Shown here: in pieces, positions 2,854 to 57,710 of the stretch
Position numbering within the stretch: position 1 is the stretch's first letter
How the letters are laid out: every line of letters begins with the position of its first letter
From: a virus
Taxonomy: Duplodnaviria > Heunggongvirae > Uroviricota > Caudoviricetes
Virus record (IMG/VR): IMGVR_UViG_2687453623_000004
Reading direction: 5' to 3' (one strand)
DNA: 64,000 nt
Program-made: the position numbers and the translations under genes
The notes under the pieces: model-generated
Told to the model about the DNA's origin: nothing
The model's input: the letters and a program-made list of their open reading frames with translations, nothing else
Databases searched by the model: none

Positions 2854-2862
2854 GGAGGCGTT

Positions 2863-3201
2863 ATGGGAACCACTCAGCAGGTCATTCTGATCACAACCGT
2901 AACGGCAGGGGCAGCACTGGCACAGCAGCGTTTTGTCGGGGCAGATAATACCCCCTGTAAAGCCGGTGCCGCAGCGCTCGGGGTTGCCGAAGTGGATGCT
3001 GTTACCGGCGACAGCACGCCGGTGAGCGTTCTGGGCATTATTGCTGTCGAGGCCGGGGCCGCTGTCAGCCGTGGTGTGGCTGTTCAGTCAGATGCTCAGG
3101 CCAGAGCCGTGCCGCAGTCCGGCGACGGTAAATCCTGTGGTATTGCACTTGATGAAGCCGGGGGTGAAGGCGACGTCATTCGTATCCTGCGCGGGGTGTG
3201 A
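2863..3201 (+). CDS. hypothetical head-associated protein (Ala/Gly/Val-rich)
   Basis: 112-aa ORF with strong RBS (taaggagg) 6 nt upstream; tightly packed between capsid gene and gp36-like gene. Confidence 0.45.
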   Translation: MGTTQQVILITTVTAGAALAQQRFVGADNTPCKAGAAALGVAEVDAVTGDSTPVSVLGIIAVEAGAAVSRGVAVQSDAQARAVPQSGDGKSCGIALDEAGGEGDVIRILRGV

Positions 3202-3202
3202 C

Positions 3203-4113: not shown

Positions 4114-4364
4114 TGAAAGAATACCGCTATTCCGGCCCGGCCAGCGGCGTCACGCTGTCGGACGGAACCGAAATCCTGCTCTGGCCGGGGAAGACGGTTT
4201 CCCTGCCGGAGGAGCATGACTACGTGAAGGTACTGGTGGCGCTGAAACATCTGACGCCGGTACCTGAAGAGACTAAACCCGCCGGCACACCGGCTGTGCA
4301 GTCACCAAAGCGCAGAAGCAGCAGTGACAGCGAAGTGAAAACGGAGGACACCCATGGCAGCTAA
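4110..4364 (+). CDS. small hypothetical phage protein (Mu gp38 position)
   Basis: 84-aa ORF, start overlaps the upstream stop and its end overlaps the sheath gene start; typical operon packing. Confidence 0.35.
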   Translation: MMKEYRYSGPASGVTLSDGTEILLWPGKTVSLPEEHDYVKVLVALKHLTPVPEETKPAGTPAVQSPKRRSSSDSEVKTEDTHGS

Positions 4365-5781
4365 CTATCTGCATGGTCCCGAAACCATTGAGGTGGAAAA
4401 CGGTGCCCGCCCGGTTAAAACGGTGAAATCTGCCGTTATTGGCCTGATTGGTACCGCCCCGATGGGGGATGTCAATACGCTGGTACAGTGCCTGTCTGAG
4501 AAAGACGCAGCGGCATTTGGCAGCCAGTTCACCGGCTTTACCATTCCGCAGGCGCTGGATGCGATTTATGACCATGGTGCAGGCACCGTTCTGGTCATTA
4601 ACGTCCTCGACCCGGCGAAACATAAAACGGCGATCGAGGATGAGGTGGTTACCTTTGACAAATCGACAGGGCAGGCCAGACTGGCGCATCCGGTTGTCGC
4701 TAATGTGGTGGTGAAAAACAGTGAAGGCAGCACCACCCACACGGCGAACACGGACTACCGTGTTGATGCGCAGGCGGGTGTGCTCACGAACCTGGGCAAG
4801 GCTATTGAGGCCGGTGGCAGCGTGAAGGTGAGCTATGAGTACGCGGACCCGTCGAAGGTGACTGCGGCGGACATCATCGGCGGGGTGAACAGCGCCGGAA
4901 ACCGAACCGGCATGAAGCTGCTTAACGACAGCTTCAACCTGTACGGCTATTTCGCCAAAATTCTGATTGCGCCGGTGTTCTGCACCCAGAAGAGTGTCGC
5001 AGTTGAGCTTATCGCCATGGCAGAGAAGCTGGGCGCGGTAACCTACATTGATGCGCCTGTCGGTACCACCTTTGCACAGGCTCTGGCAGGTCGTGGCCCG
5101 GAAGGCACCATCAACTTCAATACCAGCTCCGACCGCGTCCGTCTGTGCTATCCGCATGTGAAGGTATATGACCCGGTGACAAACACAGAGCGTCTGGAGC
5201 CGCTCAGCCAGCGTGCAGCAGGTCTGCGTGCCAGAGTCGATCTGGACAAGGGCTACTGGTGGTCATCCTCCAATCAGGAGATTCTGGGGATCACCGGCGT
5301 GGAGCGCCAGCTGTCCGCGATGATTGATGACCCGCAGAGTGAGGTGAACCTGCTTAACGAACAGGGGATCACCACGGTATTCAGCAGTTACGGCAGCGGC
5401 CTTCGTCTGTGGGGTAACCGGACGGCAGCATGGCCAACGGTCACCCATATGCGTAACTTTGAGAACGTTCGCCGCACCGGTGATGTGATCAACGAGTCCA
5501 TTCGTTATTTCAGCCAGCAGTACATCGACATGCCGATTACTCAGGCGCTGATTGATGCACTGACGGAGTCGGTCAACGCCTACGGTCGCAAAATGACTGG
5601 TGATGGTGCGGTACTGGGCTTCCGTTGCTGGTTTGATCCGGCCCGCAATCCGGAGACGGAGCTGGCCGCCGGGCACCTGTTGCTGAGCTACAAATATACG
5701 CCACCACCGCCGCTGGAGCGACTGACGTTTGAGACTGAGATCACCTCGGAATACCTGTTAACCCTGAAAGGGGGCAACTGA
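4354..5781 (+). CDS. contractile tail sheath protein (Mu gpL-like)
   Basis: 475-aa ORF; size, position upstream of the tube gene and sequence character match myovirus sheath proteins. Confidence 0.8.
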   Translation: MAANYLHGPETIEVENGARPVKTVKSAVIGLIGTAPMGDVNTLVQCLSEKDAAAFGSQFTGFTIPQALDAIYDHGAGTVLVINVLDPAKHKTAIEDEVVTFDKSTGQARLAHPVVANVVVKNSEGSTTHTANTDYRVDAQAGVLTNLGKAIEAGGSVKVSYEYADPSKVTAADIIGGVNSAGNRTGMKLLNDSFNLYGYFAKILIAPVFCTQKSVAVELIAMAEKLGAVTYIDAPVGTTFAQALAGRGPEGTINFNTSSDRVRLCYPHVKVYDPVTNTERLEPLSQRAAGLRARVDLDKGYWWSSSNQEILGITGVERQLSAMIDDPQSEVNLLNEQGITTVFSSYGSGLRLWGNRTAAWPTVTHMRNFENVRRTGDVINESIRYFSQQYIDMPITQALIDALTESVNAYGRKMTGDGAVLGFRCWFDPARNPETELAAGHLLLSYKYTPPPPLERLTFETEITSEYLLTLKGGN

Positions 5782-29880: not shown

Positions 29881-32327
29881 TTAACCGTCATGCATCATGC
29901 TGGCACGGGCGCGCGCTCGTTTATCCCGCTCGTATTTTTCGAGCGCATCCTGTAACTGGCGGTCGAGCTGTGTCCCCGGCGCAGTACCACCCGTCAGGCT
30001 GATGTGATATTCGTTTTTACTCTGGTCTACATAAGAGCGGCCAGCCGGTGCCGTGACCGGCTGATAAGCCTGATAACCTGCATAAGAGCTGGTCGCCGGA
30101 ATATAACCACCGCTGCCATACGTGGCGGCTTGAGTTCTGGCGGCGGTCTGGTCAAGTGTGTCTGACTCTTTGTTGATAACACCGAGTTTTTCCAGTACCC
30201 AGTCAATACCACTGCGCAGTTTGTTGAACGCATTAAGCGGCAGCATCAGCGCGTCAGCCAGTGCCTGCCCGAACATGACGCCCGTGTCACGGCAACGGTT
30301 CAGGGTGTCCTGGGTGGCTTTGACCGGGGCAATCAGGTTTTTAAACCACTGCCACGCGGCCTGTAACTTTTCACCCAGCCAGTCAAACACCGGTTTAAGT
30401 GGCGTGAACAGTTCCCCCACCGGCGTAAATGCCGCTTTCAGCCCTTCCACCACACCGCCAAAGAATGCGCTGACAGGCTCCCAGTATTTACGGATAAGCA
30501 ACGCCCCGGCGACAATGGCGGCCACCACGGCCACAACCGGCCAGCTAATCGCCCCGATGGCGGTCATAACAGCACTGCCAACCGTCGTGAAGATTGCCCC
30601 CATTGCGCCTGCTGCCGCGATGATGGCATTGATGCCGGTGATAACCGGCCAGGCTACGAGGCCAATGGCACCGATGACACCAATCAGTGCCAGTGCACCA
30701 CCGACAATGATGCCGATGGTTGACGCCAGTGATTTGTTTTTCTGGATCCAGCCGTCGAGTTTTAACACATACTTTGTGGCCGTCTGCGTGAGATTACGCA
30801 GTGCGCCTTCCTGCTGGTCAAACAGGTCAGTCCCCACCGCCTCATAAGCGGACTGAAACTCCTTAAAGTCACCGCCGAGGTTATCCTGCATGATTTTAAC
30901 CAGCTCTTCCGTTTTACCGTCCGAGGCTTTCAGCGTGGCGGTCAGCTTATCCAGTTTTCCGCTTGCTGCCGCTGCCAGTAAAACGTTCGCTGATTTCAGG
31001 GCTTCCTCACCAAAAATGGTTTTAAGGTATTCCCCCTTCTGAGACGTTCCCAGCTTGTGTTTATCAAAGCTGGCCTGAATCTCTTTCAGAATGGTGAACA
31101 ACGGACGCATATTTCCCTTTTTGTCCGAGGTTTTAACGCCAAGCTCTTTGAGTGCATCCCATGCTTTTCCAGTCGGTGCCTGTAATCGGGTGACAACGGC
31201 ACTACTACCCGTACCCGCCATTGACCCCCTGATGTTATTGTCATGCAGCACACCTGTCATGGCCGCTGCCTGCTCAAGACTTACGCCTGCCGTCCTCGCA
31301 ACCGGCCCGAGGTAAGTCAGTGCATCACTGAGTCCCTGAAAATCAGCGCCGACTTATTCATCGTTGCAGACAACACGTCGCCCACATGGCTGACATCATC
31401 ATTTGACAGTTGAAAGGATGCCTTAGTCCCCAGCAACAGTTGCGCGTTTTCTTCCATCGACCGCTGATTCGCCAGTGCCATATTCAGCGTGACCGGCGTT
31501 GCCGCCTGAATAGCCGCAGCATCTCCACCCGCTTTCGCAATGATAATCTGCGCACCGGCCGCATCATCCGCCGAGGCGGCTGTGTTGTCACCGAGCTGGC
31601 GCGCCTGTTTGCGGAGTGCGGTCATTTCGGCGGAGTCTTTTGCCACTCCGAGCACGGCCTGCAATTCTGAGTTTTTCTGCGCAAACTCATAACCGGGCAT
31701 CAGCAGCTTAACTCCGGCCATCGTTCCCGCAGCAGCAATCCCCGCACCGGCAGCGCCCACTGAGGCCATATTTCCGGCCAGTTCCTTTCCTGCCTGATAA
31801 CGCTGTTTGACTGCGTTAAGTTTTGCCTGTTGTACACTGACACGCGCCAGCGCGTCACGCTGACGGTTAAGCTGTGCGGTGGTTTCACTGATACGGTTTT
31901 TCAGTCCCTGCTCATCATGTGCAAGATTGCGGGTATTAATTCCCACAGCGGCCAGTTCTCGCTGCTGGCGTTTAACGGAATCTGTCAGGCGGTTATATTT
32001 CGCCTGTAAGTCCTCCGCCGCACGCTTTGCGGATTCCAGCACTTTCGCCTGAGCACGGGTCGGACGTTCGGTGTTTTTAAACTGTGTGGCAAGGGCTTCG
32101 GCTTCCTGTCGAGCCTTTTCAAATGCATGACCAGTCACGGCGAGCTGTGCACTGGTCTTGCGGAATCCCTCAATACGGGATGCGTGACCGTTCAGCTCGC
32201 GCAGTGATTTTTGTGTTTCCCGGATATCCCCCGACAGCGACTTGCTCGCTGTACGGATGGATTTAAACGGGCGGGATGCCTGGTCAACAGCCCTGAGCAA
32301 TACCTGTAATTTTACATTGTTACTCAT
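29881..32327 (-). pseudogene. T: tail tape measure gene T, interrupted by a frameshift (two ORFs: 31317..32327 and 29881..31353)
   Basis: N-terminal 336-aa ORF ends with TGA at 31317-31319 while the C-terminal frame is open from 31353 down; the two frames overlap by ~35 nt; combined length ~810 aa fits P2 gpT. Confidence 0.6.
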
Positions 32328-32803: not shown

Positions 32804-33322
32804 TCACAGGCCGATATTGCGGCGGTGTTGCTCCAGCCGGTCGACGCCGTTCACCTTCTCAATCATGTTGATGGTGTCGATTTCGACCAGCTCCTTACCG
32901 TCCATCGTCAGCCGGAAATAGGTGCAGACCACGGAGATTTTCGACTCGGTGTCTTCTCCCTGTTTACCCTCTCCGGTGTCGATTTCTTTCTGACGTCCAC
33001 GCATGACCACTTCGACGGCCACCGTTTCGCCGGTATCGTCACGCTGGTAAGAGCCTGCAAAACGAATCGGCACGGCATCCACGCCGGTTGCGGCGTAAAG
33101 CTCCCAGATAACCGAATCCGGGAAGCCCCCGAGCGACCACTCCATTGACAGCGCATCGTCATCAAGGCCGAGGTCTACCGGTGCGCTGCCGTTCATCCCC
33201 GCACCGCGATAGTTTTCGAGCTTACGGGTCAGTTTTGGCAGCGTGACGGACTTTGCAACGCCCTGATAGCTGTAGCCGTTCAGAAAGACGTTCATTAACT
33301 TGAGTTTGCGCGGCATTGCCAT
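32804..33322 (-). CDS. FII: tail tube protein FII
   Basis: 172-aa ORF MAMPRKLKLMNVFLNGYSYQGVAKSVTLPKLTRKLENYRGAGMNGSAPVDLGLDDDALSMEW… matching P2 FII. Confidence 0.9.
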   Translation of the reverse strand: MAMPRKLKLMNVFLNGYSYQGVAKSVTLPKLTRKLENYRGAGMNGSAPVDLGLDDDALSMEWSLGGFPDSVIWELYAATGVDAVPIRFAGSYQRDDTGETVAVEVVMRGRQKEIDTGEGKQGEDTESKISVVCTYFRLTMDGKELVEIDTINMIEKVNGVDRLEQHRRNIGL

Positions 33323-33334
33323 CGGTCAGGCTCC

Positions 33335-34525
33335 TTAATTGCTGTTAACCGAGGTGACCAGATTTGCCAGGTATTTATCGGTAATACGCTGGCGCAGGGT
33401 CAGGTTTTCAAGAGGAGGCACCGGTGTATAGTCGTAGTCGATATACAGTTTTCCGGCCTTGAGGGTTTCCGCATCGTTGGATTCTTCGCTGAACCAGCAG
33501 GTCGCATCCACGATATAGCCGTTTGTTTTCAGCTCACGGAATTTGGCATTGATGCCGTCAACGATGTCGCGAATCAGCGTTGCGGTGATGGGCTTGTCCA
33601 CCGCCCACATGTGCGCCTCAGCCATCGTGTCGGCAAGCACCTGCGCGGTGCGGGTGTAGTTTTCAAAGAGGAACAGCGGGTCATCAGAGCAGGTACGGTT
33701 ACCCCAGAAGCGGAAACCGTCACGGCGAATCAGCGTTGTGACGCCTGACTCGTTAAGCAGGTCAGCATCGGTACCGGACTCCTGCAAATCCCAGAATACA
33801 GAGGCGCTGATGCCGGTAACACCGCTTACCCCGACGTTGGACAGCGTTTTATGCCAGCCCTGCTCCTGGTCGATTTTAGCACGCAGGCCCAGTGCACGAG
33901 CGGTGGCATACGCGGTGGCGGTGGTACTGGCGACCGTATCCCATGCGAGGAAATCCGGCCAGATGACCATCAGCTCACGCTGGCTGAAATTCTGGCGGTA
34001 GGCTTTCACCTCGGAAATGGTCTTACAGCCCCATGCGCTGATATACCCGAAAGCGCGCAGCTTCTGACAGACTGATGCCAGTGCGACGGCAACCTCTTTG
34101 GTGTCCAGTCCCGGCACACCAAGAATACGCGGTTTAACACCGGTTACCGACTCCGCCGCCAGCAGGGCTTTCAGTCCGGTGTACTGACCGTTTTCGTCGG
34201 TGGTGCCGATGATATTGGAAATGGTCTGCGCAAGTTTCGTTTCTTCGTCGTCGCCGGTGCCGTCTTCCACACGCACGACAACGGTGACCGGTTTTGACTG
34301 GTCGGCGATGGCCTGCAACGATGCCGCCAGCGTGCCTTTTTTACCGGCCTTTGCAATTGCGCTCTGCACATTGGTTATCAGCACCGGTTTATTGAGGGGG
34401 AAGGTTTCCGCATCCGCATCGCTGGCCGTGCAGACCATGCCGACAATGGCCGTGGATACGGTGGAAATGACGCGGGTGCCGTCGTTAATCTCCAGCACCT
34501 GCACGCCGTGATGATAGTCACTCAT
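33335..34525 (-). CDS. FI: tail sheath protein FI
   Basis: 396-aa ORF MSDYHHGVQVLEINDGTRVISTVSTAIVGMVCTASDADAETFPLNKPVLITN… matching P2 FI. Confidence 0.9.
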   Translation of the reverse strand: MSDYHHGVQVLEINDGTRVISTVSTAIVGMVCTASDADAETFPLNKPVLITNVQSAIAKAGKKGTLAASLQAIADQSKPVTVVVRVEDGTGDDEETKLAQTISNIIGTTDENGQYTGLKALLAAESVTGVKPRILGVPGLDTKEVAVALASVCQKLRAFGYISAWGCKTISEVKAYRQNFSQRELMVIWPDFLAWDTVASTTATAYATARALGLRAKIDQEQGWHKTLSNVGVSGVTGISASVFWDLQESGTDADLLNESGVTTLIRRDGFRFWGNRTCSDDPLFLFENYTRTAQVLADTMAEAHMWAVDKPITATLIRDIVDGINAKFRELKTNGYIVDATCWFSEESNDAETLKAGKLYIDYDYTPVPPLENLTLRQRITDKYLANLVTSVNSN

Positions 34526-34620
34526 CCGTTTAACTCCGTGGTTAATGGGTGCAACTATTTTCTGTTGTGCAGAGCATGAGACGCTATTTGACCTGGCTGG
34601 CCAGTGGATGAAACAACAAA
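34526..34620 (-). promoter_or_regulatory. probable Ogr-dependent late promoter region upstream of FI
   Basis: Placement inferred from P2 organisation; dyad-like TGCAC…GTGCA elements present; exact Ogr site not resolved. Confidence 0.3.
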
Positions 34621-34621
34621 T

Positions 34622-34650
34622 AAAGAAAAGGCGGGCAATCAGCCCGCCTG
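34622..34650 (-). terminator. intrinsic terminator downstream of the Z/fun-position cargo gene (minus strand)
   Basis: Minus strand: ggcaggcgggc tgatt gcccgcc followed by ttttcttta. Confidence 0.55.
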
Positions 34651-34836
34651 CCTTGATTTGTTCTCACTCAGCTTCCAACTGACAAGTTACATAATCAAAA
34701 CGCTATTAAATCTGACAGTCTGCTTTGAGCGATGAACGGACATAACGACTCACTAATGACTAATTTGCTAACCGCTTCCGACCCAAAACTGTCGGTTGCA
34801 TGATAATTAATCCAGCAAGCAAATTCATAGTCATTG

Positions 34837-35313
34837 CTATATGTTACTGGGATTATTAAAAGGGATAATACTGGCCAATCCGTCATCAACATCAAGACCA
34901 TAGGTAACCGCTATTTCTGCCAGAGAGTTACCACACTTTTGTCGCAGTTTAAAAAGGGCTCGCTCAAGTATGGATATTTGAACAGGATGATCAAGTTGGA
35001 TAAAGTGAGGGGAGCCAACGCTGTCACAGAATTCTTGGCATGCTTTTCTCATTTTCCTTAATTGTTTTGCTAAATGTGAATCGCTCGGCAAACCTTGTAG
35101 GACTTTAGTCAATTCAGATCTAATGTTGATAACACTCGAAGTGCAATGACTAGCACCCTCCATGTCGACAGGATTGAAAAGAACGCGCTTGTCCTCAAGA
35201 AAAATGACGATCTTCTTCGCTTCGTCAGTTTCTATTATTGGAGCATTCCACTGAATCCCGAATATGGGACAGCTAAGGCCAGTAATATTTTTATAGATTT
35301 GTTCAAATTTCAA
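34837..35313 (-). CDS. hypothetical protein, accessory cargo at the P2 Z/fun position (no family recognised)
   Basis: 158-aa ORF MKFEQIYKNITGLSCPIFGIQWNAPIIETDEAKKIVIFLEDKRVLFNPVDMEGASHCTSS… in a visibly AT-rich block unlike the surrounding phage genes; own terminator downstream. Confidence 0.55.
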   Translation of the reverse strand: MKFEQIYKNITGLSCPIFGIQWNAPIIETDEAKKIVIFLEDKRVLFNPVDMEGASHCTSSVINIRSELTKVLQGLPSDSHLAKQLRKMRKACQEFCDSVGSPHFIQLDHPVQISILERALFKLRQKCGNSLAEIAVTYGLDVDDGLASIIPFNNPSNI

Positions 35314-35571
35314 AAGTCACTCCTTGGATGGACTCTGAGCATATAAAACGCCATACTGATAAACGGACTCGGTTCAAGTAATCTGTTAGATAGCATAACT
35401 CGGAACCACTGTAAAAATAGTTGTTAACATACCTAAAAGTGACAGCGGAGGCAAGATTCCCTCAGCCGGAGCGATAAATTAGGCATAAGTTATACACACA
35501 TTAGTAATAATCACTAAAGATATTCTAATTTTTTATGCCGACTTAATATGATTTCCCGTCAATCAGGTTAG

Positions 35572-35597
35572 CGTCCGCTCCTGGCACAAAGCGGACG
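35572..35597. repeat. hairpin-containing ~26-bp element, copy 1 (cgtccgctcctggcac aaa gcggacg)
   Basis: Perfect 7-bp stem CGTCCGC/GCGGACG; the first 16 nt recur exactly at 36495-36510. Confidence 0.6.
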
Positions 35598-35753
35598 AGG
35601 TAACTGAGCTAAAGGTCCGCTGTGAGCGAAAAGTGGACATTAGAGTTACAAAAGTAAGTTTAAATCATCCAAAATATTACAATATCCTTATCTATCTGAT
35701 ATTGTTATGATAAAAAGTTCCTGAATATAATCGATAGTAGGTGGTTATTTTCC

Positions 35754-36131
35754 ATGAAATCAATTTTAGAGGTTTTTACTCAAGGAAATACTAAAGAAAA
35801 ACTGGCTGTTATCGCTGATCTCACAACCATTGCGGGAATATCGATAGCAACTATTATTGCTGGTTTGTTAACCCTAGTTGCAAAAACAGATAAACTAGAT
35901 GTTGGAAATCTGTTTGGAGTTGTCATAATATCTCTGCTCGGATTGGCTGGTGTTTGCTGTTTTATGGCCCTATTTATTTGGGTTATAACCCAAATGTCTA
36001 AACCATGGGGAACACCTCGGGGGATTCAGTCCTTAGTTAAGTGTGCTATTTCCCTTATCTTTATCTGTATTTTTTTGCTGGCTGTCTTTACATTTTATGA
36101 GGTTATTTCTTCGATGAGAATACTCTATTGA
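35754..36131 (+). CDS. small multi-pass membrane protein, accessory cargo (no family recognised)
   Basis: 125-aa ORF with RBS ggtgg upstream; three or four hydrophobic helices (…IAGISIATIIAGLLTLVA…, …GVVIISLLGLAGVCCFMALFIWVI…, …AISLIFICIFLLAVFTFY…). Confidence 0.55.
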   Translation: MKSILEVFTQGNTKEKLAVIADLTTIAGISIATIIAGLLTLVAKTDKLDVGNLFGVVIISLLGLAGVCCFMALFIWVITQMSKPWGTPRGIQSLVKCAISLIFICIFLLAVFTFYEVISSMRILY

Positions 36132-36494
36132 ATATAAAATCAGCTCTCATAACTTAAAAGAGGCCTTCTATAAGGTCTCTTTTAATTGAATTACCATCCT
36201 ATTAATCCAGAGAATCTTTATCATCACAAAATAACAAACATTGGAGATAATTAATAAACTAATCATCCTCAAGATCATCTTTATCTTTACAAAGCGAGTG
36301 TCAGTATTCATCCTAACATCAAGTGCAGAATGGAGTATTTTATGTATCTTCATGCCGCTTGCACGCTTTATCTCGTTTTTTGTAGGTGGTGTACTATCTC
36401 TAAATGACCATTTATATGGTGTAAGACTACTGACTTTAGAGGGCTATGATCTACATAGTTCTTCTAACCATTATTCTCCAAATAAACTTTACAA

Positions 36495-36520
36495 CGTCCG
36501 CTCCTGGCACGGAACGGACA
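36495..36520. repeat. hairpin-containing ~26-bp element, copy 2 (cgtccgctcctggcac ggaa cggac)
   Basis: Direct repeat of copy 1; together they bracket the membrane-protein gene (~0.9 kb). Confidence 0.6.
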
Positions 36521-36580
36521 GCCTGATTAGGTTTTACTCTGTGCCATAGATGAGTAATCTCATACCAGAGCTAATACGAT

Positions 36581-37105
36581 TTATTGCGGCATTTCTGGCC
36601 ATTCTATATCCGGAGCATTTTCCGGCTGAACGCGATTCAGTAGCACACGGTATTTTTTCCAGTGTGTCAGGCTTAACTTTTCTTCCTCGGTAGCCATATC
36701 TAAATCGACAGCATCCTGCAGAGTGCCAATAATTTCACCGGCATATGCAATCTGCTCTTTCTTCTGAGACTCCGCCGCTCTGACAAGTGCATCATGCTCT
36801 GCATTCTCATCATTCACCCACGCATTTCCGTTCCATTTCTGATAATCCCCATCCGGGGAAATGGCTGTCACGTCTGGAGGTAATGCACCAAGTTCAGAAA
36901 TATAAATGGCTGCTCCCGTTTTCGTTTCGTAGACAGTCTTTCCGCGATGATCTTCCATCAACTCCCATTTCATTTCATCTGCATTGAAAACGGCTGCATA
37001 ACCAGCAGGAATATCAGGTGGTGCAATATCTGTACTGTTTGCAGGCAGACCTGTATGCGGCGGAATATATGCATCACTTTCGCCAATAAACTCATTGGTT
37101 GCGTA
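36581..37105 (-). pseudogene. G: tail fibre assembly gene G, 3' fragment (175 codons, no start codon), separated from its 5' end by an IS element
   Basis: Frame open from TAA at 37106-37108 down to the stop at 36581; encodes …[57 protein letters not shown]…DIEWPEMPQ, the conserved Tfa body. Confidence 0.8.
37093..37099. repeat. 7-bp target-site duplication (CATTGGT), copy flanking the lower-coordinate IS end
   Basis: cattggt immediately precedes the IS terminus tgcgtatt… at 37100; identical heptamer follows the other terminus at 39681-39687. Confidence 0.7.
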
Positions 37106-37184
37106 TTACCGTGAAGGAGATCGGTGAGTAACATCGATGGAGATCGGTTCGTGTCACTTTCACAGAACCGTTTTTAAATTACCT

Positions 37185-37934
37185 TCACTGATCTCCTTCG
37201 GTCAACGGAGATTGTATTTTCCGCATTGATTCTCCTTTAAGTTCGATCTTGATACTGCCATGAACCAGTCGATCTAGGATGGCATCCGCATGTGTGGAGT
37301 CTCCGATCATTTTGTACCAGTTTTCCACCGGCAACTGGCTCACTACGATGATTGAGCCTCGTTGGTACATCAGATCCACTATTTCCAGCAGGTCGCTACG
37401 CTGTTCTGATGAGAGAGGTTCCAGCCCCCAGTCATCCAGAAGCAGCAGATCGCTATTATTCAGCCTGGTCAAAAGTTTGCTGTATCTTCCATCAGCATGC
37501 CCCTGATAGCACTGTTCCATCAGCGCTTTAAGGCGATAATAGTAGACCTTGTATCCCTGTCGGCAGGCATTATGACCAAGTGCACATGCCAGGAACGTTT
37601 TACCGCTGCCGGTGGCCCCGGTCAGTAAAATATTTTGTTTCAGGGTTAACCAGTTTCCCTGACTGAGTGAACGGATGAGGGCCCTGTCCAGCCCTCTATT
37701 GTTACGATAATCCAGCTTTGATAACTCAGCATTAAGTCTGAACCGTGCATGTTTGATCAGACGCTCTGCCTTCCTGTTTTCACGGCAGGTTAGTTCTTCT
37801 GCTGTCAGTAATGACAGGCGTTCTTCGAAGCCCAGCTCCTGGTATGTGCCCGGTTGAGCAAGTTGCTTTTTAAGCGCATCACGGAAGCCGGTGAGTTTAA
37901 GTGCGGTCAGTTGTTCGTAAAGATGATTCATCAT
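37185..37934 (-). CDS. istB: IS21-family transposition helper ATPase IstB
   Basis: 249-aa ORF with Walker A motif (LLTGATGSGKTFLACALG) and Walker B-like LLLLDDWG. Confidence 0.9.
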   Translation of the reverse strand: MMNHLYEQLTALKLTGFRDALKKQLAQPGTYQELGFEERLSLLTAEELTCRENRKAERLIKHARFRLNAELSKLDYRNNRGLDRALIRSLSQGNWLTLKQNILLTGATGSGKTFLACALGHNACRQGYKVYYYRLKALMEQCYQGHADGRYSKLLTRLNNSDLLLLDDWGLEPLSSEQRSDLLEIVDLMYQRGSIIVVSQLPVENWYKMIGDSTHADAILDRLVHGSIKIELKGESMRKIQSPLTEGDQ

Positions 37935-37945
37935 TGGATCCCGTA

Positions 37946-39487
37946 TCAGTGGTAATACTCACTGCCGCGTACGTTTTCGTGTTCCATCGTGGATAACAGA
38001 TCTGGTTTTGGATCCTGAACAGGTTGTTTATCCAGACCTTTTTCCAGGATCGATTTAATACCTGACAGACGCCATACCTTTGTTTTCAGAGCTCTTGCAC
38101 ATGCTGCATTAAGTCTGGCTTTACTGTATTTTTTATGAAGGTTCAGGAGTCCAAGGCAGAAGCGATAGCTTTGTTCCGGATGTGGACGAGAGTTCAGTAT
38201 ATGAAGCACATAACTATGAGTTTCACTGCCTATGTGCCCCGCCCATTCCAGAAGACGCTCTGGCGTCCAGGTGGCATGCTGTCGATGAGCTTCAGGCATG
38301 TGCTCGTTGCGGGTACTGTAGCCATAAGTACGCTTGCGCGGGTGCACAGCAACCTCCTGCCCCTGATTGAAGAGTCTTACCAGTTCTCCGGAGATCCATG
38401 CTTCCAGTTGCTGGCCTAACAGCGAACATGGAACCGAGTAGTAATGTTTGTCGATTTCCACGTGGTAATCGGCATGAACTCTGACTTTCTTCACCAGGGT
38501 GTAACTGTAACTGGCTTCAGGAAGAGGCTTCAGTGCGGGTTTATCAAGCTGGATGAAGAGTTCTGCACGTGAATAACCCAACTTCTGCATTATTTTGTTA
38601 TTCAGTCTTTCCAGCAACTCCCGAATGCGCTGATTAAGCGATGCAAGGCTGTAGAAGATCTCATGCCTGATTCGGGCCATGATCCAGCGTTCAACAACCT
38701 GAACGCCAACTTCAGCTTTGGCTTTATCTTTCGGTTTACGTGGCCGCGCAGGCAAAACTGCGACATTATAATGCTCAAGCATCTGCTGGTAGGTAGGGTT
38801 AACGTCAGGATCATACTTACATGCCCTGGATGTGGCGCTTTTCAGATTGTCCGGAACAACAAGTTCAGGAACGCCACCCAACCACTGGAAGCAGCGAACA
38901 TGACTCATCACCCAGTCTTCAAGCTGCTGAGACCAGGTGGCCTCTGCCCATGTGTAACTTGATGCCCCGAGAACAGCTACGATGACCTGAGCAGTTCTTA
39001 TTTCTCCGGTCTCAGGGTCGGTAACGCCAACGGTAGGTCCACAGTAATCAACGAAAAGTTTTTCGCCAGCTTTATGTACCTGACGCATTGATGGTGAAGT
39101 GGTTTTGAGCCATTCACGGTACATCCGGCAGTAATGGTTATAGCTGTAAAAACCGCCTGGATTACGCTCACAGTATTCTTCCCAGAGTAGCTGCAGCGTC
39201 ACGCATTTATTACGCAGTTCCCGGTGTACTGTAGCCCAGTCAGGCAGAGAGTGCTTCTTCATCTTAACCTGGGTCTGAAGGAACGCATGTTTTAGTTTTG
39301 TATCATCCCATCCTGTAGGTAAGGGCCACTGCTTTATGCCAAGTTGAGCCGCCCGATTAGCATATCTGGATACAACGGAAGGGGAGATTGCAAGACTACG
39401 ACCAATTTGTCGATGGCTGAGTCCAACACCGTATTTAAGCCTAAGAATTTCTTTAAGTTTTCTCATAGAAATTGGAACTGTTGGCAT
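37946..39487 (-). CDS. istA: IS21-family transposase IstA
   Basis: 513-aa ORF with N-terminal HTH (…LSHRQIGRSLAISPSVVSRY…) and DDE-type catalytic core; followed 12 nt later by istB. Confidence 0.9.
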   Translation of the reverse strand: MPTVPISMRKLKEILRLKYGVGLSHRQIGRSLAISPSVVSRYANRAAQLGIKQWPLPTGWDDTKLKHAFLQTQVKMKKHSLPDWATVHRELRNKCVTLQLLWEEYCERNPGGFYSYNHYCRMYREWLKTTSPSMRQVHKAGEKLFVDYCGPTVGVTDPETGEIRTAQVIVAVLGASSYTWAEATWSQQLEDWVMSHVRCFQWLGGVPELVVPDNLKSATSRACKYDPDVNPTYQQMLEHYNVAVLPARPRKPKDKAKAEVGVQVVERWIMARIRHEIFYSLASLNQRIRELLERLNNKIMQKLGYSRAELFIQLDKPALKPLPEASYSYTLVKKVRVHADYHVEIDKHYYSVPCSLLGQQLEAWISGELVRLFNQGQEVAVHPRKRTYGYSTRNEHMPEAHRQHATWTPERLLEWAGHIGSETHSYVLHILNSRPHPEQSYRFCLGLLNLHKKYSKARLNAACARALKTKVWRLSGIKSILEKGLDKQPVQDPKPDLLSTMEHENVRGSEYYH

Positions 39488-39680
39488 AGGTATCCTTTAC
39501 CGGAATGGCAAAAGATACAGATCAACACACCTGTGAAGTTCCAATAACATTGATGGAGATCACTGAATAACAAAATGAGTCAAAAGTGATCTCCATCGAT
39601 GTTATTCAGCGATCTGTTCAAATGTTATTACCCGATCTCGATGGAAGTTATTGAGTGATCTCCTTTCATGAAAATACGCA

Positions 39681-39747
39681 CATTGGTTCCATCAAGTAAA
39701 TTGAAAACGCGGATAGTTTGTGCTTCTGCACTCATTCTGAAAGCCAT
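39681..39747 (-). pseudogene. G: tail fibre assembly gene G, 5' fragment (first 22 codons)
   Basis: ATG at 39747-39745 overlapping the H stop; encodes [22 protein letters not shown], then runs into the IS terminus; joining it to the 3' fragment across the IS restores …[15 protein letters not shown]…. Confidence 0.75.
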
Positions 39748-42371
39748 TATGCAAGCCTCACAATATAGTTAAATGCGATGTTTTTGACGGTGTTTTCTGT
39801 ATTACCTGTAGCATTAACGGTAATAGAGTGCCCGTGTGAGCCAATAGCAACCGTGTGTGAATGTGCACCAATACCAACCGTATGATTATGTGCACCAATA
39901 TCTACCGTGTGGGCATGATTCCCGGCAGCTCCTGATGTGCCATTAAACGATGGGTTGTCAAAGCCTGTTTTACCGGTTTCACCATTAGTATTGGCATTCC
40001 CTCTGTAAATGGTATGTGTATGGTTACCAGTGGTATTAGTGGTTTTTGTTCCGTAGTTAAACGTACTGACTGTCTTCGTCCCGTAATCAAACGAACTGGT
40101 TGTTTTCGTTCCCAAATCCGTATTTGACGCACTGGCACTGTGAGTATGCGATTTAATCCCGTCCTGTTCCTGTGACAATACGGCACGCCCACTGGCGGGT
40201 TTGCCCTTGATTGTCCAGCCGCGCATATCAGGAATAACACCAGAAGGATAGGCTATAGCCAGTTTCGGATATGCTGCCTTATCAAACGTCTGCCCCTGCA
40301 TGATTGCATAGCCTGCAGGTGGTGTATCTGATGGCCACGGCAGCGGAACACCAGGCGGAAACGCTTCAATATTTGCCGAGCCGTCAAATTTTACGCCGTT
40401 AATTGTCCTTGCCGTTTTCAGCTTTGTTGCTGTAGCCGCATTGCCGGACAGTTCACCAGAAAGGCCTGCACTGAATGTCTGTTTTGCCTCCCATGTCTGG
40501 GCTTCGTCGATAATTGGTAGCCGACGAATATTGAAGCTACGCTCCCCAGGATTGCCATATAAGCGGACTGTAAAAAAACGATAGTTGGTTTTGTTTGAAG
40601 TGCTGCGCCATACCTGCATTGAACGGGCGACACCTCCGCCTTCACTGGGGCCAACAGTGATATTTATCAGGTTAGTATCAATGACGCCCCATTCCATCCC
40701 ATCGGGAATATTGGTCATATCTGAAAGCCTGACAGTTATCATGCTGCCCGGTATAAAGTCGTAGGTCTGCCAGTCCAGACTGGATAACCTGTCGGTAACA
40801 CCGCCGACACCTAATTTAGTGAGTAATGATTTTGAGTTGTATACTTCCGCCCATTCCCCCCAGTCAGTTTCACCGCTGGCGCGGGTTCGCTGAAATGTCC
40901 GGTTTTTATAGGCATCCGTTGCTGAAACAGTCGTATATGTCTGGATATACGATTCAATATCACAACGTTTTTTCACCTCAACTATTGAGCCAACAGCAAG
41001 ATCTTTAGAGTCGGTGACAGGTGCATTTGTGGCCTGTTTCGTGACGCTATAAATACCAGGCTTTAAAAGGTCATCAAGATCCCCTGAATAAGTCCATCCC
41101 GTGGACTGATACCCAACAGCAATCCAGTCCTCCCATTGTGGATTTTCTGCATCCCATGAGGCTGTCAGTCCGCGAATGTACATAGTCCCACTACGGGTGG
41201 TATAACGTTGCATCCTCCCATACAGACCGCCTTCAAAGACTTCCAGAATACCCTGTCCAAAACTCCCTTCCTCCGGGAAATGACGGTCAAATGAGGCTAT
41301 TGATGTACTGCTATTGCGCCATATTCCCAGGTGTTCCGCACCACCTAAAGAATTCAGGTCAATTGACGTGCTTAATGGGCGAGTCCCGCTTGTAATAGCT
41401 CTCCATGCACTCCATACAGGACTGACAGGGTTCCATTCTGCATCAAGCATCCGAATGTAAATATTACCGGTTCGGGTGGTGTAGCGTTGTGTGCAGTGAA
41501 AGCGACCAGCATTGAATACTTCCAGAACCCCATTGCCTTTATCTTCAGGGTAACCAGACTCTGGTTTTGCAGTGGATTGTGACGGACATGACCACGTTCC
41601 AAGATATTTTTCTTCTGGGCCATAGGAATCAAGATTGTCAGTGGTTGGAATCATTCCATTGTGTTTCATAAACGTCAGGCTGGTAACGCCAATATTGTCC
41701 AGAAAAGCGCCCTTATCTGGAATATCGCCACCGTTCTGGTCTTTCTGCAGACGTTTCTCAGCATTGTCATAGGCTGCTTTTACTGCCTTTGGCGTTGCTG
41801 CCAGCTTTTCACTGGTGCTGTTTGTTGCACTGCTTAACTGAGTAAAACCTTTTTCTGTCAGCGTGGCGTCAGGATGGCGGCGGGACTGCTCATGCTCTGC
41901 GATTTTGTCATCGACGTAATCCTGCGTCGCCATCACTGTGCTGGCATCAATACTCAGCTCAACAGACGCCACGTTACTGACAATAATGACCATGCGGCAG
42001 GTCTGCGCACGCCCGGAGCCTTCAGCCAGTTCAGGCTTATAGCTTTCTGCCATGTTAGCGACCGCAATCAGTGTTCCGGCATCATCATACAGACCAAGTT
42101 CACGCATCCAGAAGCCGCCCACTTCTGGCGGTACAACCAGTTCAGCCACGATATAGTTTTTATTCTTGTTATCCACGCTGACTTTATTCAGAGCGTGACG
42201 CCAGACCTCATGCACCAGTTTCGTCTGACCGGCATCCGGCACCGGCAATTTGCCATTACCGTCACCCACGGCCATTGCAGACAGGTTTACTTTTTTCCCG
42301 CCGGGGACAGTGGCGGCTGCCAGCTTTGCGGCTCCGGCAGTAGTGATAACGGTTTTAAATTTCGTGCTCAT
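39747..42371 (-). CDS. H: tail fibre protein H
   Basis: 874-aa [66 protein letters not shown]… (P2 H-like N-terminus) with His-rich C-terminal repeats ending [11 protein letters not shown]. Confidence 0.9.
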
Positions 42372-54369: not shown

Positions 54370-54789
54370 TTAATCATGCTCTAAAGGAGGAATATCAATG
54401 TCACTTAGTTGCAGAACCTTGCGGTAAGCCTCAAAAATTATTTGATGTATATTTTTTAAGTCAGCAAGCATTCTCTGCCTTCCTTCTGGAGTGAATTTAC
54501 CATCAGCATGTTTGCGATAAAACTCATGTGCCAAGTAGTTTCTGGCTTTAAGAGCATCTGACACATGCTCCAGTGTATCAGCATCCCCCACCATCCTTGA
54601 CTTCAGTGCGTAATTCAGTTTACCCAGCGTGTACTTATCCATTTCTAGAAACTGTTTTTTCAACGACGCTATATCCCCCCCTTGCTTCATATCATACTCA
54701 GTGAGGGCATTTATTAATTCAGTCTCCAATAATTGGGCAGCTTCCGATGCATAACCAAACTTCCAATACACAGTATCAAGCGTCACCAT
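54370..54789 (-). CDS. hypothetical protein, tin/old-position cargo (no family recognised)
   Basis: 139-aa ORF MVTLDTVYWKFGYASEAAQLLETELINALTEYDMKQGGDIASLKKQFLEMDKYTLGKLNYALKSRM… with RBS ggagaa ~8 nt upstream; AT-rich context. Confidence 0.5.
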   Translation of the reverse strand: MVTLDTVYWKFGYASEAAQLLETELINALTEYDMKQGGDIASLKKQFLEMDKYTLGKLNYALKSRMVGDADTLEHVSDALKARNYLAHEFYRKHADGKFTPEGRQRMLADLKNIHQIIFEAYRKVLQLSDIDIPPLEHD

Positions 54790-55192
54790 ATAACCTATTC
54801 TCCAGATAACAAACTCTATCCGAGATTAAGCCATAATACACAAATAAGTCTAACGCATCGCTGCACTCATTGTTCCCCCCCGCTAACACTAGAAACAAGT
54901 TTCACGGCTAGCGGCGTTCTCTATCATCTGTGTGATGACGGAGCCATTCTGGATGGACTGATATCGTTAAGCAACCCGTAATTCTCCCGGACTAATTGCC
55001 CTCCAACCAACGCATCAAGCATCAGATTTTCGTGCTTCATTATCTGCTGCCGACTGTGAACAAAAGCCATCAGTTTGATACTTTCAGTTGTATTAACTCA
55101 GACACCAACTGATAGGTTACATATCCAGTATTCAATCAGATCTGACAGTTAAGAGGGACGATAACATGACAACCACCGTAACTATTTGAAAG

Positions 55193-55969
55193 CTATTTAA
55201 TACGTATGAAATCTAAAGAGTATTTAATTGATGATTTCGTTGATTGAAACCATTTCAAATGCGACCACTCTGGGCCTGACAATAGAGTCAGTAGCGTTTT
55301 TTTATCTCTTTCCTTCATTCTTAACCCAAAAGCTATAGAATTGACCGCTAAAGGTTCAAATTTCCTTGCTCCAAAATTCTCCACAATCAATCGGCGCTCC
55401 CTTTCATATTTCCAACTTGTGTACTTTGTCGTTAAAATAGAAAGTAAAATATCCCCGCAAATATTATCAAACCCGTTAAGGCATTCATTATCCTCAAAAT
55501 AATGAATACGTTTAACAATATCATCAAAGGGATAATTATCCTGATATTCCACATCTGCTTCCAAAAAAGAAACCCCAGCTTTCTTCAAATACTCCTCTTT
55601 AAAGCCAATGCAAATACCTTTATGTTCATCGGCATAATGTGACCACATCAATTGATTTTTCCTCGCTTTACTAAAGGAACAAATTCCGACTTGCTGCAAT
55701 GACTGTTTAAGATATCTCTCATATTTAATTCTCATATCAAGAGGCAGTGGATAATGTTTCCAAACAGCATCAAGCACATTTGAAAATGAAGAATTTGCTT
55801 CAAAAGGATCATTAAGAGTATCTGGTTTTGCAAACCATAACTCACGATTCAATAACAGCTTCAGATTGTTTTTATCAAACTTACGATACTTAAATAAAAT
55901 TCCTGGCTTTGTTATGTGTATCACATCCTCTCCTGTTAATTCACAATTCTTATTAAAAACAACAAACAC
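55193..55969 (-). CDS. hypothetical protein, possibly DUF2971-like (start may be GTG at 55924)
   Basis: 258-aa frame; segment …ILFKYRKFDKNNLKLLLNRELWFAKPDTLNDPFE… resembles the N-terminal signature I associate with DUF2971; first codon is GTG, and an alternative GTG at 55924 has a better RBS (ggagagg). Confidence 0.45.
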   Translation of the reverse strand: MFVVFNKNCELTGEDVIHITKPGILFKYRKFDKNNLKLLLNRELWFAKPDTLNDPFEANSSFSNVLDAVWKHYPLPLDMRIKYERYLKQSLQQVGICSFSKARKNQLMWSHYADEHKGICIGFKEEYLKKAGVSFLEADVEYQDNYPFDDIVKRIHYFEDNECLNGFDNICGDILLSILTTKYTSWKYERERRLIVENFGARKFEPLAVNSIAFGLRMKERDKKTLLTLLSGPEWSHLKWFQSTKSSIKYSLDFIRIK

Positions 55970-56041
55970 TAAAAAAAATCATGAAAGGGGTGCATTAAAA
56001 ACACCCCTTAAGATCATTAAAACAGCATTAAATGCCGTTCG

Positions 56042-56548
56042 CTATAACTTTTCCTCCAATTCTTTTTCGTTTATTACTGTATACAACCTATTTATAAACG
56101 AGACATTTCTCCAAATAAGAACAATAACGCATGACAGTTGAGTCAGTAATATACTCAAGATATATACACAACTCACACCTTTAATAAGGTGACGATTGTT
56201 CGCATAGAAATCCGTACCGCGGAGAACAGCATTAAATGCGTAAAAAGCAATAATAAAAATTAATACAGTAGCGGACATAATGATAATAAGAATCATACCT
56301 TCTATGCGCTTCGCTTCACTTTTGCTTGCTAAAAAATCCACTTTTTCAGATTTCATCAAACCAGCGATTGCATTTGGATAGAGATAAGCTAGCCAAATAC
56401 CAGCAATTGCAAAAATCATCGCGGACGTATTTTGCAAAACACCAAGAAGATCAACAACATATGAATATTTGACGCTTTCTGAAATGCTAAAACCGCCAAC
56501 AAGCAGAACGAAGGCCATGAGAATCCCAATAAGGATCTTTATTATCAC
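56042..56548 (-). CDS. four-helix integral membrane protein (candidate effector), translationally coupled to the upstream gene
   Basis: 168-aa ORF starting with GTG 2 nt after the upstream TGA, with RBS ggagga inside the upstream gene's last codons; four hydrophobic segments. Confidence 0.6.
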   Translation of the reverse strand: MIIKILIGILMAFVLLVGGFSISESVKYSYVVDLLGVLQNTSAMIFAIAGIWLAYLYPNAIAGLMKSEKVDFLASKSEAKRIEGMILIIIMSATVLIFIIAFYAFNAVLRGTDFYANNRHLIKGVSCVYILSILLTQLSCVIVLIWRNVSFINRLYTVINEKELEEKL

Positions 56549-56549
56549 A

Positions 56550-57710
56550 TCATCCTCCTATAGCGACCTCATTGTTATTTCCCGAAGGTATAACTTGAGT
56601 TTTATCAATCTCATAACCATCGAGACCACTTACGAGTTCTTTTCGTTTATCATTAATTAACTCTGCCAATTTCTCAGCCGAGATATGTGCGTTATCATTT
56701 ACAGTATAAGTAGCATTCAAATAATCACGCATAACATATTCATCTAACCACTTAGTCTGCCCATTCTTACCATCCTGTTTGAAGCCGATATTGTTCCAAG
56801 AAGAGCCGAAAGCATAATCCTCTTCATAAAAATCGAAAAGTTCGTCAATTTGCTTTTCAGTTGGTCTTTCTTCAATAATTAACTCTATCTGTCGTTCTTT
56901 ATGAGTCTTAGGTACTTCATCACGTAATACAGGAAATTTATCAAAAGCCTTTACCCACCAAGCTCTTTTATCTGGAACTTTAGCTCCAATTGTATCTCTT
57001 ATTACAATATGTGTTATAGAGTCACGAATCTTCTTTATATTTATACGCCCAGCTTTTTTCATATACTGCTGCGCTTCAAATAAAAATCTTACTCGTGAAC
57101 TTCCGTCATCACTTTCAAATGTAACAACACTAAACTTTATGTCTTTCCCACCTGGATTTGGTCTGCATACTTCTGCAATTTTACGCCCGGGATATGGCAT
57201 TCTGAAATTAGCATAATCTCTAATATAGCGACTAAAAAGATAAGTGTCTGAGTTTGAGTGAGGGAAACGAATTGCAGCAAATTTATTGAACTCAGGGATG
57301 TACCAGTAATAACATGGCTTACCCCAAATATATTTAACCCCATCAGTCATATCATCCGAAAGCATCTTAACGTCACTAGATGATGAATTTACCTGTGAAT
57401 CTGGCGCAACCCCCTGAAGATTACCATTGCCATCAAGTTCTGATTTCCAAAGCACAAAAAAATAATCGCCTGTCTTTTCATCTTTATGCACACCTCGACA
57501 ATAAACCTTTTTCCGCAGTCTAGAGTCATCAACCAATGGTAGGGTTTCTTCAAAAGAACGAGAACAAACCCAGTTGGACAGGGAGTCTAATATATTTACA
57601 ATATCCGTGCTTTTTTGAACTTCATCCTTAAGATTGTAAAAACCAGCTTTCGTTACATCAAAAAATGTTAAGCGCCCTGCTTCTTCAGCCATGATACTAC
57701 CTTGCAACAT
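56550..57710 (-). CDS. hypothetical soluble protein (~380 aa), first gene of a two-gene cargo operon (no family recognised)
   Basis: 386-aa ORF (likely start at the second ATG, 57692, which has an upstream aagg) MLQGSIMAEEAGRLTFFDVTKAGFYNLKDEVQKSTDIVNILDSLSNWV…; ~390-bp AT-rich upstream intergenic region. Confidence 0.6.
   Translation of the reverse strand: MLQGSIMAEEAGRLTFFDVTKAGFYNLKDEVQKSTDIVNILDSLSNWVCSRSFEETLPLVDDSRLRKKVYCRGVHKDEKTGDYFFVLWKSELDGNGNLQGVAPDSQVNSSSSDVKMLSDDMTDGVKYIWGKPCYYWYIPEFNKFAAIRFPHSNSDTYLFSRYIRDYANFRMPYPGRKIAEVCRPNPGGKDIKFSVVTFESDDGSSRVRFLFEAQQYMKKAGRINIKKIRDSITHIVIRDTIGAKVPDKRAWWVKAFDKFPVLRDEVPKTHKERQIELIIEERPTEKQIDELFDFYEEDYAFGSSWNNIGFKQDGKNGQTKWLDEYVMRDYLNATYTVNDNAHISAEKLAELINDKRKELVSGLDGYEIDKTQVIPSGNNNEVAIGG

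Follow-up and report, generated by a model that had tools for sequence, protein, structure and literature searches.

We analysed a stretch of 64,000 nucleotides (nt) of virus DNA (IMG/VR record IMGVR_UViG_2687453623_000004), hereafter the window, which holds a P2-like prophage of Escherichia coli. The subject of this study is the cargo at the Z/fun position of this prophage, between the tail sheath gene FI (33335-34525, minus strand) and the tail-fibre-assembly gene G, whose C-terminal part lies at 36581-37099 on the minus strand. The same position is occupied by Z/fun in P2, and it was reported as a second defence-enriched locus of P2-like phages (Vassallo et al. 2022; PMC9519451). A preliminary description, made from the sequence alone, had placed at this position an AT-rich block with a gene for a protein of 158 amino acids (aa) and a divergent gene for a 125-aa multi-pass membrane protein, and all of these features were found again. 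The first gene, ORF158 (34837-35313, minus strand), starts with TTG after an AAGGAG Shine-Dalgarno sequence. The second, TM125 (35754-36131, plus strand), encodes three hydrophobic segments. The GC content is 0.32-0.41 over 34650-36450, compared to 0.52-0.59 in the flanking tail genes. The block had been taken to extend over 34526-36580, which is too wide, as homology breakpoints confine the cargo proper to 34718-36519. The segment upstream of FI (34526-34717) is P2 backbone, with 34000-34743 sharing 94.9% identity with phage P2 and about 94% with other P2-like prophages, and on the other side P2 backbone homology restarts at about 36485-36496. The terminator formerly assigned to the cargo (34622-34650) corresponds to a G+C-rich hairpin at 34629-34649 followed by TTTTCTTTATT, which scored better on the minus strand in a terminator scan (fold z = -5.5). 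Because it lies inside the segment about 95% identical to P2, this hairpin belongs to the backbone; it probably ends leftward transcripts leaving the cargo, ahead of the start of the FI operon. The 2.3-kb locus is 99.9-100% identical in 18 complete E. coli genomes, in which RefSeq names a tail sheath protein, a DUF6650 family protein, a hypothetical protein and a tail fibre assembly protein.

ORF158 had been described as a protein of no recognisable family. A domain search instead identified it as a member of Pfam DUF6650 (PF20355; E=2e-16, 60.7 bits against a cut-off of 27, residues 9-101 aligned), a soluble, single-domain, ThsG-like protein. It also matches phrog_29952, a family without assigned function, and a scan of NCBIfam returned no family for either ORF158 or TM125. 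About 100 homologues were found at E<=1e-3, mostly of 156-158 aa, in Escherichia, Edwardsiella, Klebsiella, Achromobacter, Aeromonas, Shewanella, Pseudomonas, Vibrio, Comamonas and other genera. The start of ORF158 is conserved among these homologues, the residues T11, G12, P16, F18, G19, W22, R43 and R124 are invariant, and the ratio of nonsynonymous to synonymous substitution rates (dN/dS) is 0.08-0.34. ORF158 is 86% identical at the nt level to an Achromobacter copy, with the 158-aa frame intact; sequence similarity of this kind indicates a recent transfer of the DUF6650 gene between classes. Hydropathy analysis revealed no hydrophobic segment, and the AlphaFold2 monomer is predicted as a helical bundle (pLDDT 78, pTM 0.70). 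The region upstream of the gene (35314-35430, minus strand) travels with it, at 83-97% identity in P2 and non-P2 contexts, and presumably holds its promoter. Another, small open reading frame (ORF) at 34695-34901 belongs to no family.

TM125 is predicted to have three transmembrane-like helices (hydrophobic segments at residues 16-45, 47-82 and 89-124), modelled by AlphaFold2 as three long helices at low confidence (pLDDT 64, pTM 0.37). It matches phrog_4155, a family without assigned function, and searches of Pfam, NCBIfam and PADLOC gave no family. Its 21 homologues are all from Enterobacterales, nearly all 125 aa long, with 86% mean column identity in the alignment. The dN/dS against orthologues in other genera is 0.21-0.38; the value of 0.76 against the KSC207 copy (97% nt identity) is uninformative because there are too few substitutions. 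With lengths conserved across genera and low dN/dS, both ORFs are real genes. A sigma-70-like promoter (TTGTTA, 18 nt, TATAAT; 35702-35731, plus strand) lies 22 nt upstream of the ATG of TM125. It has 10 of 12 matches in the scan and is the best of the region, where the total count of such sites is not above chance. The ribosome-binding site is AGGTGG. A perfect hairpin with a 14-bp stem (I6, 36154-36185; fold z = -5.8), 23 nt past the stop codon, is likely the terminator of TM125, and within it the S88-type cassette departs from the window sequence.

Downstream of TM125, we detected the remnant of a convergent gene for a 556-aa P-loop NTPase (36168-36510, minus strand) by tblastn and blastn comparison with a Serratia marcescens locus (L017). 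Positions 36279-36437 encode NTPase residues 498-550 (tblastn, 88.7% identity over 53 aa, E=2e-29), and 36439-36510 matches the region upstream of the NTPase gene, which places a deletion junction at 36438/36439. The 1.6 kb at L017 5687-7281 is missing from the window (blastn). In S. marcescens, the NTPase gene (L017 5506-7176) is intact and convergent with the membrane gene; its product has a Walker A motif (GRTGAGKS), a faint nSTAND1 Pfam mark and weak PADLOC matches to PDC-M28C and mad8. This comparison suggests that the ancestral cassette had two genes, for the membrane protein and the NTPase. The neighbours of TM125 differ in other genera, and all 64 E. coli genomes that have TM125 keep it without the NTPase. 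ORFs at 36168-36353 and 36241-36549 were rejected as genes: they have no family and overlap the remnant.

The cargo is punctuated by four hairpin motifs of two types, all on the plus strand. Type A (GTCYGCT-TTGAGCGA-NNNN-YGGAC) is found at 34718-34741 and 35615-35638, and type B (GTCCGCT-CCTGGCAC-NNRR-CGGAC) at 35573-35596 and 36496-36519. The first type A hairpin, GTCTGCTTTGAGCGATGAACGGAC, is the left edge of the DUF6650 cassette and the site of the breakpoints with EC01307, KSC207, S88 and P2. The last type B hairpin, GTCCGCTCCTGGCACGGAACGGAC, closes the cargo on the right, 62 nt away from the stop codon of G. Between the genes, B and A are joined by an 18-nt spacer, GAGGTAACTGAGCTAAAG, into a composite (35573-35638; fold z = -2.7), and the block reads A-[DUF6650]-B, 18-nt spacer, A-[TM125]-B. 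Every pairwise blastn breakpoint falls on one of these four motifs. A pattern search of both strands of the window, allowing at most one mismatch, returned 10 matches, compared to 0.86 expected by chance; the zero-mismatch copies on the plus strand were four, all in the cargo block and none in the other P2 hotspot of the prophage. The hairpins look like conserved dyad-symmetric DNA sites and not RNA helices, because the variation in their stems consists of mismatches and T.G pairs, double compensatory substitutions being almost absent, and Rfam gave no match. A sigma-54 reading of the TGGCAC in the type B loop was also dismissed, as no TTGC element stands at the required spacing.

The B-A junction between the genes is where homology breakpoints separate them, and they are distributed independently. 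Among 5,426 complete E. coli genomes, TM125 is present in 64 and both genes in 18, all at least 99.9% identical over the locus. The pair was also found in four IMG/VR contigs, with every co-occurrence at least 99.4% identical. The DUF6650 gene is absent from 46 of the 64 genomes with TM125, and TM125 from 10 of the 28 with DUF6650. Alone, TM125 occupies the Z/fun position of KSC207, whereas in S88 and about 38 further genomes its companions are a DUF5677 protein and a short tyrosine recombinase. The DUF6650 gene, for its part, stands beside PD-T4-3 in a P2 remnant of EC01307, between IS2 and IS3 in an island of strain 181.1, and beside Gabija GajA/GajB in a CP4-like island (seven genomes). In the non-E. 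coli genera examined, the two families were never neighbours. ORF158 and TM125 are unrelated single-gene cassettes and do not form a module.

These data bear on the earlier proposal that the two genes are a toxin/immunity or exclusion module, of which one variant would be a split form of those ThsG proteins that have N-terminal transmembrane helices. The genes are adjacent and divergent, 440 nt apart; some ThsG effectors fuse transmembrane helices to DUF6650; and the pair recurs in genomes and contigs, one of the latter without FI or G nearby. However, the co-occurrences are essentially one sequence. The separate contexts and the B-A junction contradict a functional pair, as does the NTPase remnant, which shows that TM125 was once the cassette-mate of a different protein, still intact in Serratia. 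We consider a two-gene module very improbable. What holds of the proposal is that the genes are accessory cargo, for which a role in phage exclusion is plausible. The contig without FI or G within the fetched locus is a 79-kb IMG/VR contig (L123), where the DUF6650 and TM125 cassettes (2658-5723) are the last two units of a longer B-A array. Such arrays may move as a block.

DUF6650 is the domain of ThsG, the effector of type VI Thoeris, which has a TIR enzyme as its partner and 2'cADPR as its signal (bioRxiv 10.64898/2025.12.03.692087). According to the same preprint, 2'cADPR is made by TIR proteins upon infection, and cells that have the system stop growing when it is added. In the AlphaFold3 model, six ThsG protomers form a ring, with basic pockets between them. 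Some ThsG have N-terminal transmembrane helices, and helix-less forms function as effectors in the type VI systems tested there. ORF158 shares PF20355 with ThsG, is of similar size and, like some ThsG, has no transmembrane helix. It differs in having no adjacent TIR (ThsB) gene, and the 156-158-aa subfamily is solo in the contexts examined.

We surveyed about 40 adjacent genes across about 45 related loci for a partner of DUF6650. A profile scan found no TIR gene among the ORFs of this hotspot or of the other hotspot of the prophage, and tblastn of a ThsB_TIR protein against the window gave noise only. No TIR was present among the annotated or scanned neighbours in four E. coli contexts (this prophage, the EC01307 remnant, the strain 181.1 island and the Gabija island). 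A 305-aa protein beside DUF6650 in the Gabija island was considered as a TIR and set aside, as it has no Pfam or PADLOC family. In 37 loci from GTDB species of bacteria and archaea, the 26 adjacent genes scanned (from 24 loci) included no TIR. An all-against-all BLAST of neighbours revealed no recurrent partner of the 158-aa subfamily, and the E. coli type VI systems of the preprint were not detectable with the ORF158 gene at the DNA level. Eight loci from other genera yielded, by the Pfam marks of the neighbours, a single TIR, in Pseudomonas spirodelae, three genes downstream of DUF6650. This locus (L010 6001-8821) encodes the 158-aa DUF6650 protein, a 243-aa membrane-anchored protein, ThsA_Macro and ThsB_TIR. 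ThsA_Macro, directly before the TIR, is likely the effector of that TIR, and the locus is either a neighbouring type II-like Thoeris or a multi-effector system.

The neighbours that do occur are rich in defence genes. In the GTDB loci they include Mrr, HsdR, AbiEii, HEPN_Toprim, RhuM, a LEM-3-type GIY-YIG nuclease, DUF4411, HaeIII and an MNT nucleotidyltransferase, and in E. coli Gabija GajA/GajB and PD-T4-3. The homologue of Vibrio vulnificus (L024-L026 5001-5477) is a 615-nt single-gene cassette between superintegron attC repeats, in an array of 12 attC-like repeats with TAACAA spaced at 457-788 nt. The DUF6650 family comprises 1,730 clusters at 50% identity, and its best-scoring 150 are mostly single-domain proteins of 150-190 aa; the type VI operons reported number 255 (bioRxiv 10.64898/2025.12.03.692087). 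Solo DUF6650 is common, mobile and embedded among defence genes. As a separate observation, the LEM-3-type nuclease adjoins DUF6650 both in E. coli EC01307, where it is PD-T4-3 (L005 5235-6008), and in a Deltaproteobacteria metagenome-assembled genome (L053 3100-3933).

Since solo DUF6650 is common, mobile and found in defence neighbourhoods, we read ORF158 as a probable stand-alone ThsG-like effector. Cassette 1 (34718-35596) would supply a soluble, partner-less anti-phage protein expressed from the prophage. By analogy with the ThsG of type VI Thoeris, we infer that ORF158 could assemble with copies of itself into a ring, sense infection by binding a nucleotide (2'cADPR or a relative) or some other cue, and halt cell growth before the invading phage finishes its cycle, that is, act by abortive infection. 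Because its cassette has no TIR gene, the trigger would have to come from outside, either from an enzyme acting in trans or directly from the phage. A computational study that employed DefensePredictor lists DUF6650 among the domains newly tied to defence, through a SMEK-DUF6650 fusion, DS-27 (PMC13092281). DS-27 'SMEK' (WP_087896215.1) is, like ORF158, a single-gene E. coli system with a DUF6650 assignment and no TIR partner, and it has been validated; it differs in its length of 299 aa and its N-terminal SMEK domain. Among the defence genes predicted in the same study is WP_010377994.1, a DUF6650 protein of 158 aa from E. coli (log-odds 6.5), and HHpred there gives full-length coverage for a 158-aa E. 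coli relative. In our judgement, the odds that ORF158 has a defence function lie slightly above even.

The main rival to this reading is that ORF158 is a counter-defence sponge, a copy of the effector domain without killing function that soaks up 2'cADPR and so shields P2, or other phages of the lysogen, from a type VI Thoeris of the host. ORF158 is soluble, small and probably oligomeric, without enzymatic or membrane domain; it is phage-borne without a TIR sensor; and type VI Thoeris is present in E. coli S1 and ACN001. The known sponges Tad1 and MoTad2 sequester 2'cADPR and defeat type VI Thoeris. Tad1 and Tad2 are likewise small, soluble, oligomeric and phage-encoded and bind cADPR isomers, but they have no sequence or fold relation to ORF158, which belongs to an effector family and not to a known sponge family. 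A fold search with the ORF158 model found no viral relative. A sponge role would suit a ligand-binding domain that is soluble and carried by a phage, but it agrees poorly with the chromosomal and integron copies, as the same gene is found in non-phage islands beside Gabija and between insertion sequence (IS) elements, and in a Vibrio superintegron. Moreover, distant solo homologues from many phyla are surrounded by restriction, Abi and toxin-antitoxin genes, the hotspot is known for defence genes expressed by the lysogen, and helix-less ThsG do serve as effectors. Weighing both sides, we find a sponge quite improbable.

For TM125, the function is inferred in its entirety, from context. Cassette 2 (35615-36519) would encode an inner-membrane protein of three helices, in a gene with a promoter and terminator of its own, the apparent survivor of a two-gene cassette after deletion of the NTPase. 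TM125 may act as a membrane-level exclusion or abortive-infection protein able to work alone. Prophages and phages encode small membrane proteins of exclusion or abortive infection, such as lambda RexB, T4 Imm and P22 SieA. TM125 is likewise small, multi-pass, predicted to reside in the inner membrane and located at an accessory locus of a prophage; it differs in having no homology to any annotated family and a history tied to a P-loop NTPase. A second comparison is P2 Fun/Z, which blocks T5, T-even and other phages. It occupies the same FI-G locus, within the same type A and type B brackets, and its direction of transcription, like that of TM125, is the reverse of that of the late genes. The 233-aa Fun protein of P2 has three C-terminal hydrophobic segments, and TM125 also has three, although the two are not homologous: neither blastn nor blastp matched the P2 Z/fun proteins (85 aa and 233 aa) to ORF158 or TM125. 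The chances that TM125 serves in defence we put somewhat below even.

The border hairpins recur well beyond this prophage. A...B brackets surround the Z/fun genes of P2, the cargo of the isolated phages P24C9 and P22H4, the cargos of KSC207 and S88, and the DUF6650 cassettes of EC01307 and of the strain 181.1 island; a type-A-like copy follows the DUF6650 gene in the Gabija island. Scanning IMG/VR for type B returned 105 loci. About half were P2-like Z/fun sites, with at least seven A-to-B distances (938-3,270 nt), and in the remaining ones FI or G was not seen within the fetched locus. The B-A composite has the consensus spacer rrGGTAACTGAGCTnAAG, and the motifs are 42 nt apart, start to start, in 18 of 22 junctions of other loci. 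This composite, 75 nt long, was detected at 80% coverage or more in 768 of the 5,426 E. coli genomes, always in unannotated DNA. The sampled contexts, all A-cargo-B regardless of gene orientation, were a lambdoid prophage with PD-T7-1, an e14-like prophage beside an integrase gene, and CP4-like islands with DUF2971/PDC-S31. In the lambdoid prophage, that of E. coli 1EC187 (L171 2339-3688), the A-B cassette encodes PD-T7-1, a validated single-gene defence protein (PADLOC, E=7e-157). From these comparisons, we take the A/B hairpins to be sites of putative recombination, at which P2-like phages, lambdoid prophages and genomic islands exchange cargo.

A tyrosine recombinase of 194-200 aa (Pfam Phage_integrase), 92-100% identical between contexts, recurs in the hairpin loci and is a candidate enzyme for cassette exchange. 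One copy lies inside the Z/fun hotspot of S88; the enzyme is also encoded in two of four sampled chromosomal contexts and at 6 of the 105 viral loci, and one further viral locus gave a more distant, partial match. Where it stands with respect to the cassettes varies. Copies lie at L004 5539-6123, L171 1419-2021 and L172 6128-6730, and in the IMG/VR loci L065, L070, L074, L095, L135 and L140. The arrangement is reminiscent of integrons in its short gene units, with or without promoter, its imperfect palindromic sites, the composite between cassettes and the small tyrosine recombinase nearby, and one DUF6650 homologue, that of V. vulnificus, does form a genuine integron cassette. In contrast to integrons, the A/B hairpins (GTCCGCT...GCGGAC) lack the attC core (GTTRRRY / RYYYAAC) and a fixed integrase-attI platform, and their cargo lies in either orientation with its own promoter. 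It is conceivable, if rather doubtful, that the hairpins and the fixed B-18 nt-A composite are the recombination sites of an unrecognised integron-like exchange system for mostly single-gene defence cassettes, with the 200-aa recombinase acting on them. In such a frame, the exchanged cargo may comprise PD-T7-1, solo DUF6650, DUF2971/PDC-S31, TM125 and P2 Fun/Z, and solo DUF6650 may be either a ThsG that acts without a TIR or a decoy for the Thoeris signal kept by the phage. No earlier description of the hairpin punctuation was found in the literature looked at, and a literature search with the hairpin sequences gave chance matches only.

The prophage that carries the two cassettes is now defective. 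Every late gene is on the minus strand in the ORF list, which includes E/E', the tail tube gene FII (32804-33322) and the tail-fibre gene H (39747-42371). The tape measure gene T (29881-32327 region, minus strand) is split in two ORFs and annotated as frameshifted at the identical locus of LS4 (RefSeq). The C-terminal part of G (Caudo_TAP; Pfam PF02413, E=1e-40) is a RefSeq pseudogene without its N-terminus, since ISEc12 (IS21 family) is inserted in G at 37100-39681, on the minus strand, with istB at 37185-37934 and istA at 37946-39487 (RefSeq of the identical LS4 locus). A 66-nt N-terminal stub of G remains beside H after the insertion. As the prophage is decaying, the cargo could be passively carried, and one or both genes could be inactive leftovers or have a role in lysogenic conversion unrelated to phages. 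The loss of the NTPase next to TM125, the lack of a strong ORF158 promoter and the restriction of the locus to a narrow set of near-identical genomes agree with this explanation. On the other hand, neither ORF is disrupted, comparisons across genera show purifying selection on both, and the 158-aa frame survived inter-class transfer. TM125 has been retained without the NTPase in every E. coli carrier, and both families are repeatedly found solo on mobile elements. Passive carriage is in our view unlikely.

We favour the reading that the Z/fun hotspot of this prophage holds two independently acquired, self-contained cassettes and that ORF158 and TM125 have roles in defence, at a probability of about 0.6 for the statement as a whole. 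Its structural part, two independent cassettes of which one carries a solo DUF6650 gene, is highly likely. Besides the decay of the prophage, several observations weigh against a defence role. Searches with the PADLOC 2.0 models gave no match to ORF158 or TM125 at E<=1, and the DUF6650 gene is rare, being present in 28 of the 5,426 complete E. coli genomes. A sigma-70 promoter scan upstream of ORF158 found no convincing match. The authors of the type VI Thoeris preprint left the toxicity of helix-less ThsG unexplained (bioRxiv 10.64898/2025.12.03.692087), a point that also suits a sponge. A profile comparison linking DS-27 to the ORF158 subfamily was not significant (hhalign probability 0.3). 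TM125 is not among the DefensePredictor table entries listed, and it may be an inactive orphan, because its original partner NTPase is gone.

The other P2 hotspot of the prophage (54370-57710, between the portal gene and replication gene A) contains four minus-strand genes. They encode a 139-aa protein without family, a DUF2971 protein matching the PADLOC candidate PDC-S31, and proteins of 168 aa and 386 aa that match the candidates PDC-M18B and M18A, respectively. In Comamonas sp. E6 (L012 6001-8475), DUF6650 leads a row of co-oriented genes for DUF2971 (241 aa), a 161-aa and a 172-aa protein. Two of the products, the 172-aa protein and DUF2971, show weak similarity to the 139-aa and DUF2971 genes of the other hotspot (window 54448-55864; tblastn, 5e-7 and 7e-4). 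This likeness may reflect a functional link or a shared cassette pool. We did not assign the DUF2971 cluster to the ORF158 locus, as the links are weak and the matching genes lie in the other hotspot. Over 34300-37300, Rfam returned only a sub-threshold match to IS009 inside G (36618-36816, minus strand; 51 bits against a gathering score of 117, E=4e-10), which probably reflects conserved P2-like tail-fibre-assembly sequence and not an RNA gene.

The link of DUF6650/ThsG to immunity dates from 2025-2026 only, and it concerned only proteins that partner a TIR enzyme or fusions that include the domain. Here, and in most of the related loci examined, DUF6650 occurs by itself with defence genes around it, whether the carrier is a phage, an island or an integron. 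Can a ThsG work without a TIR of its own, does it receive signals made elsewhere in the cell, or is it a phage decoy? The partner-less ThsG domain as mobile single-gene cargo is one of the two more interesting results of this analysis, and the hairpin punctuation that defines cassettes in many E. coli mobile elements is the other. The border hairpins provide a sequence handle on how cargo is exchanged in a P2 hotspot, a matter left open for the other P2 hotspot, near cos, by Rousset et al. 2022. With the composite present in so many complete E. coli genomes, the hairpins could be used as a search key for new accessory cassettes.

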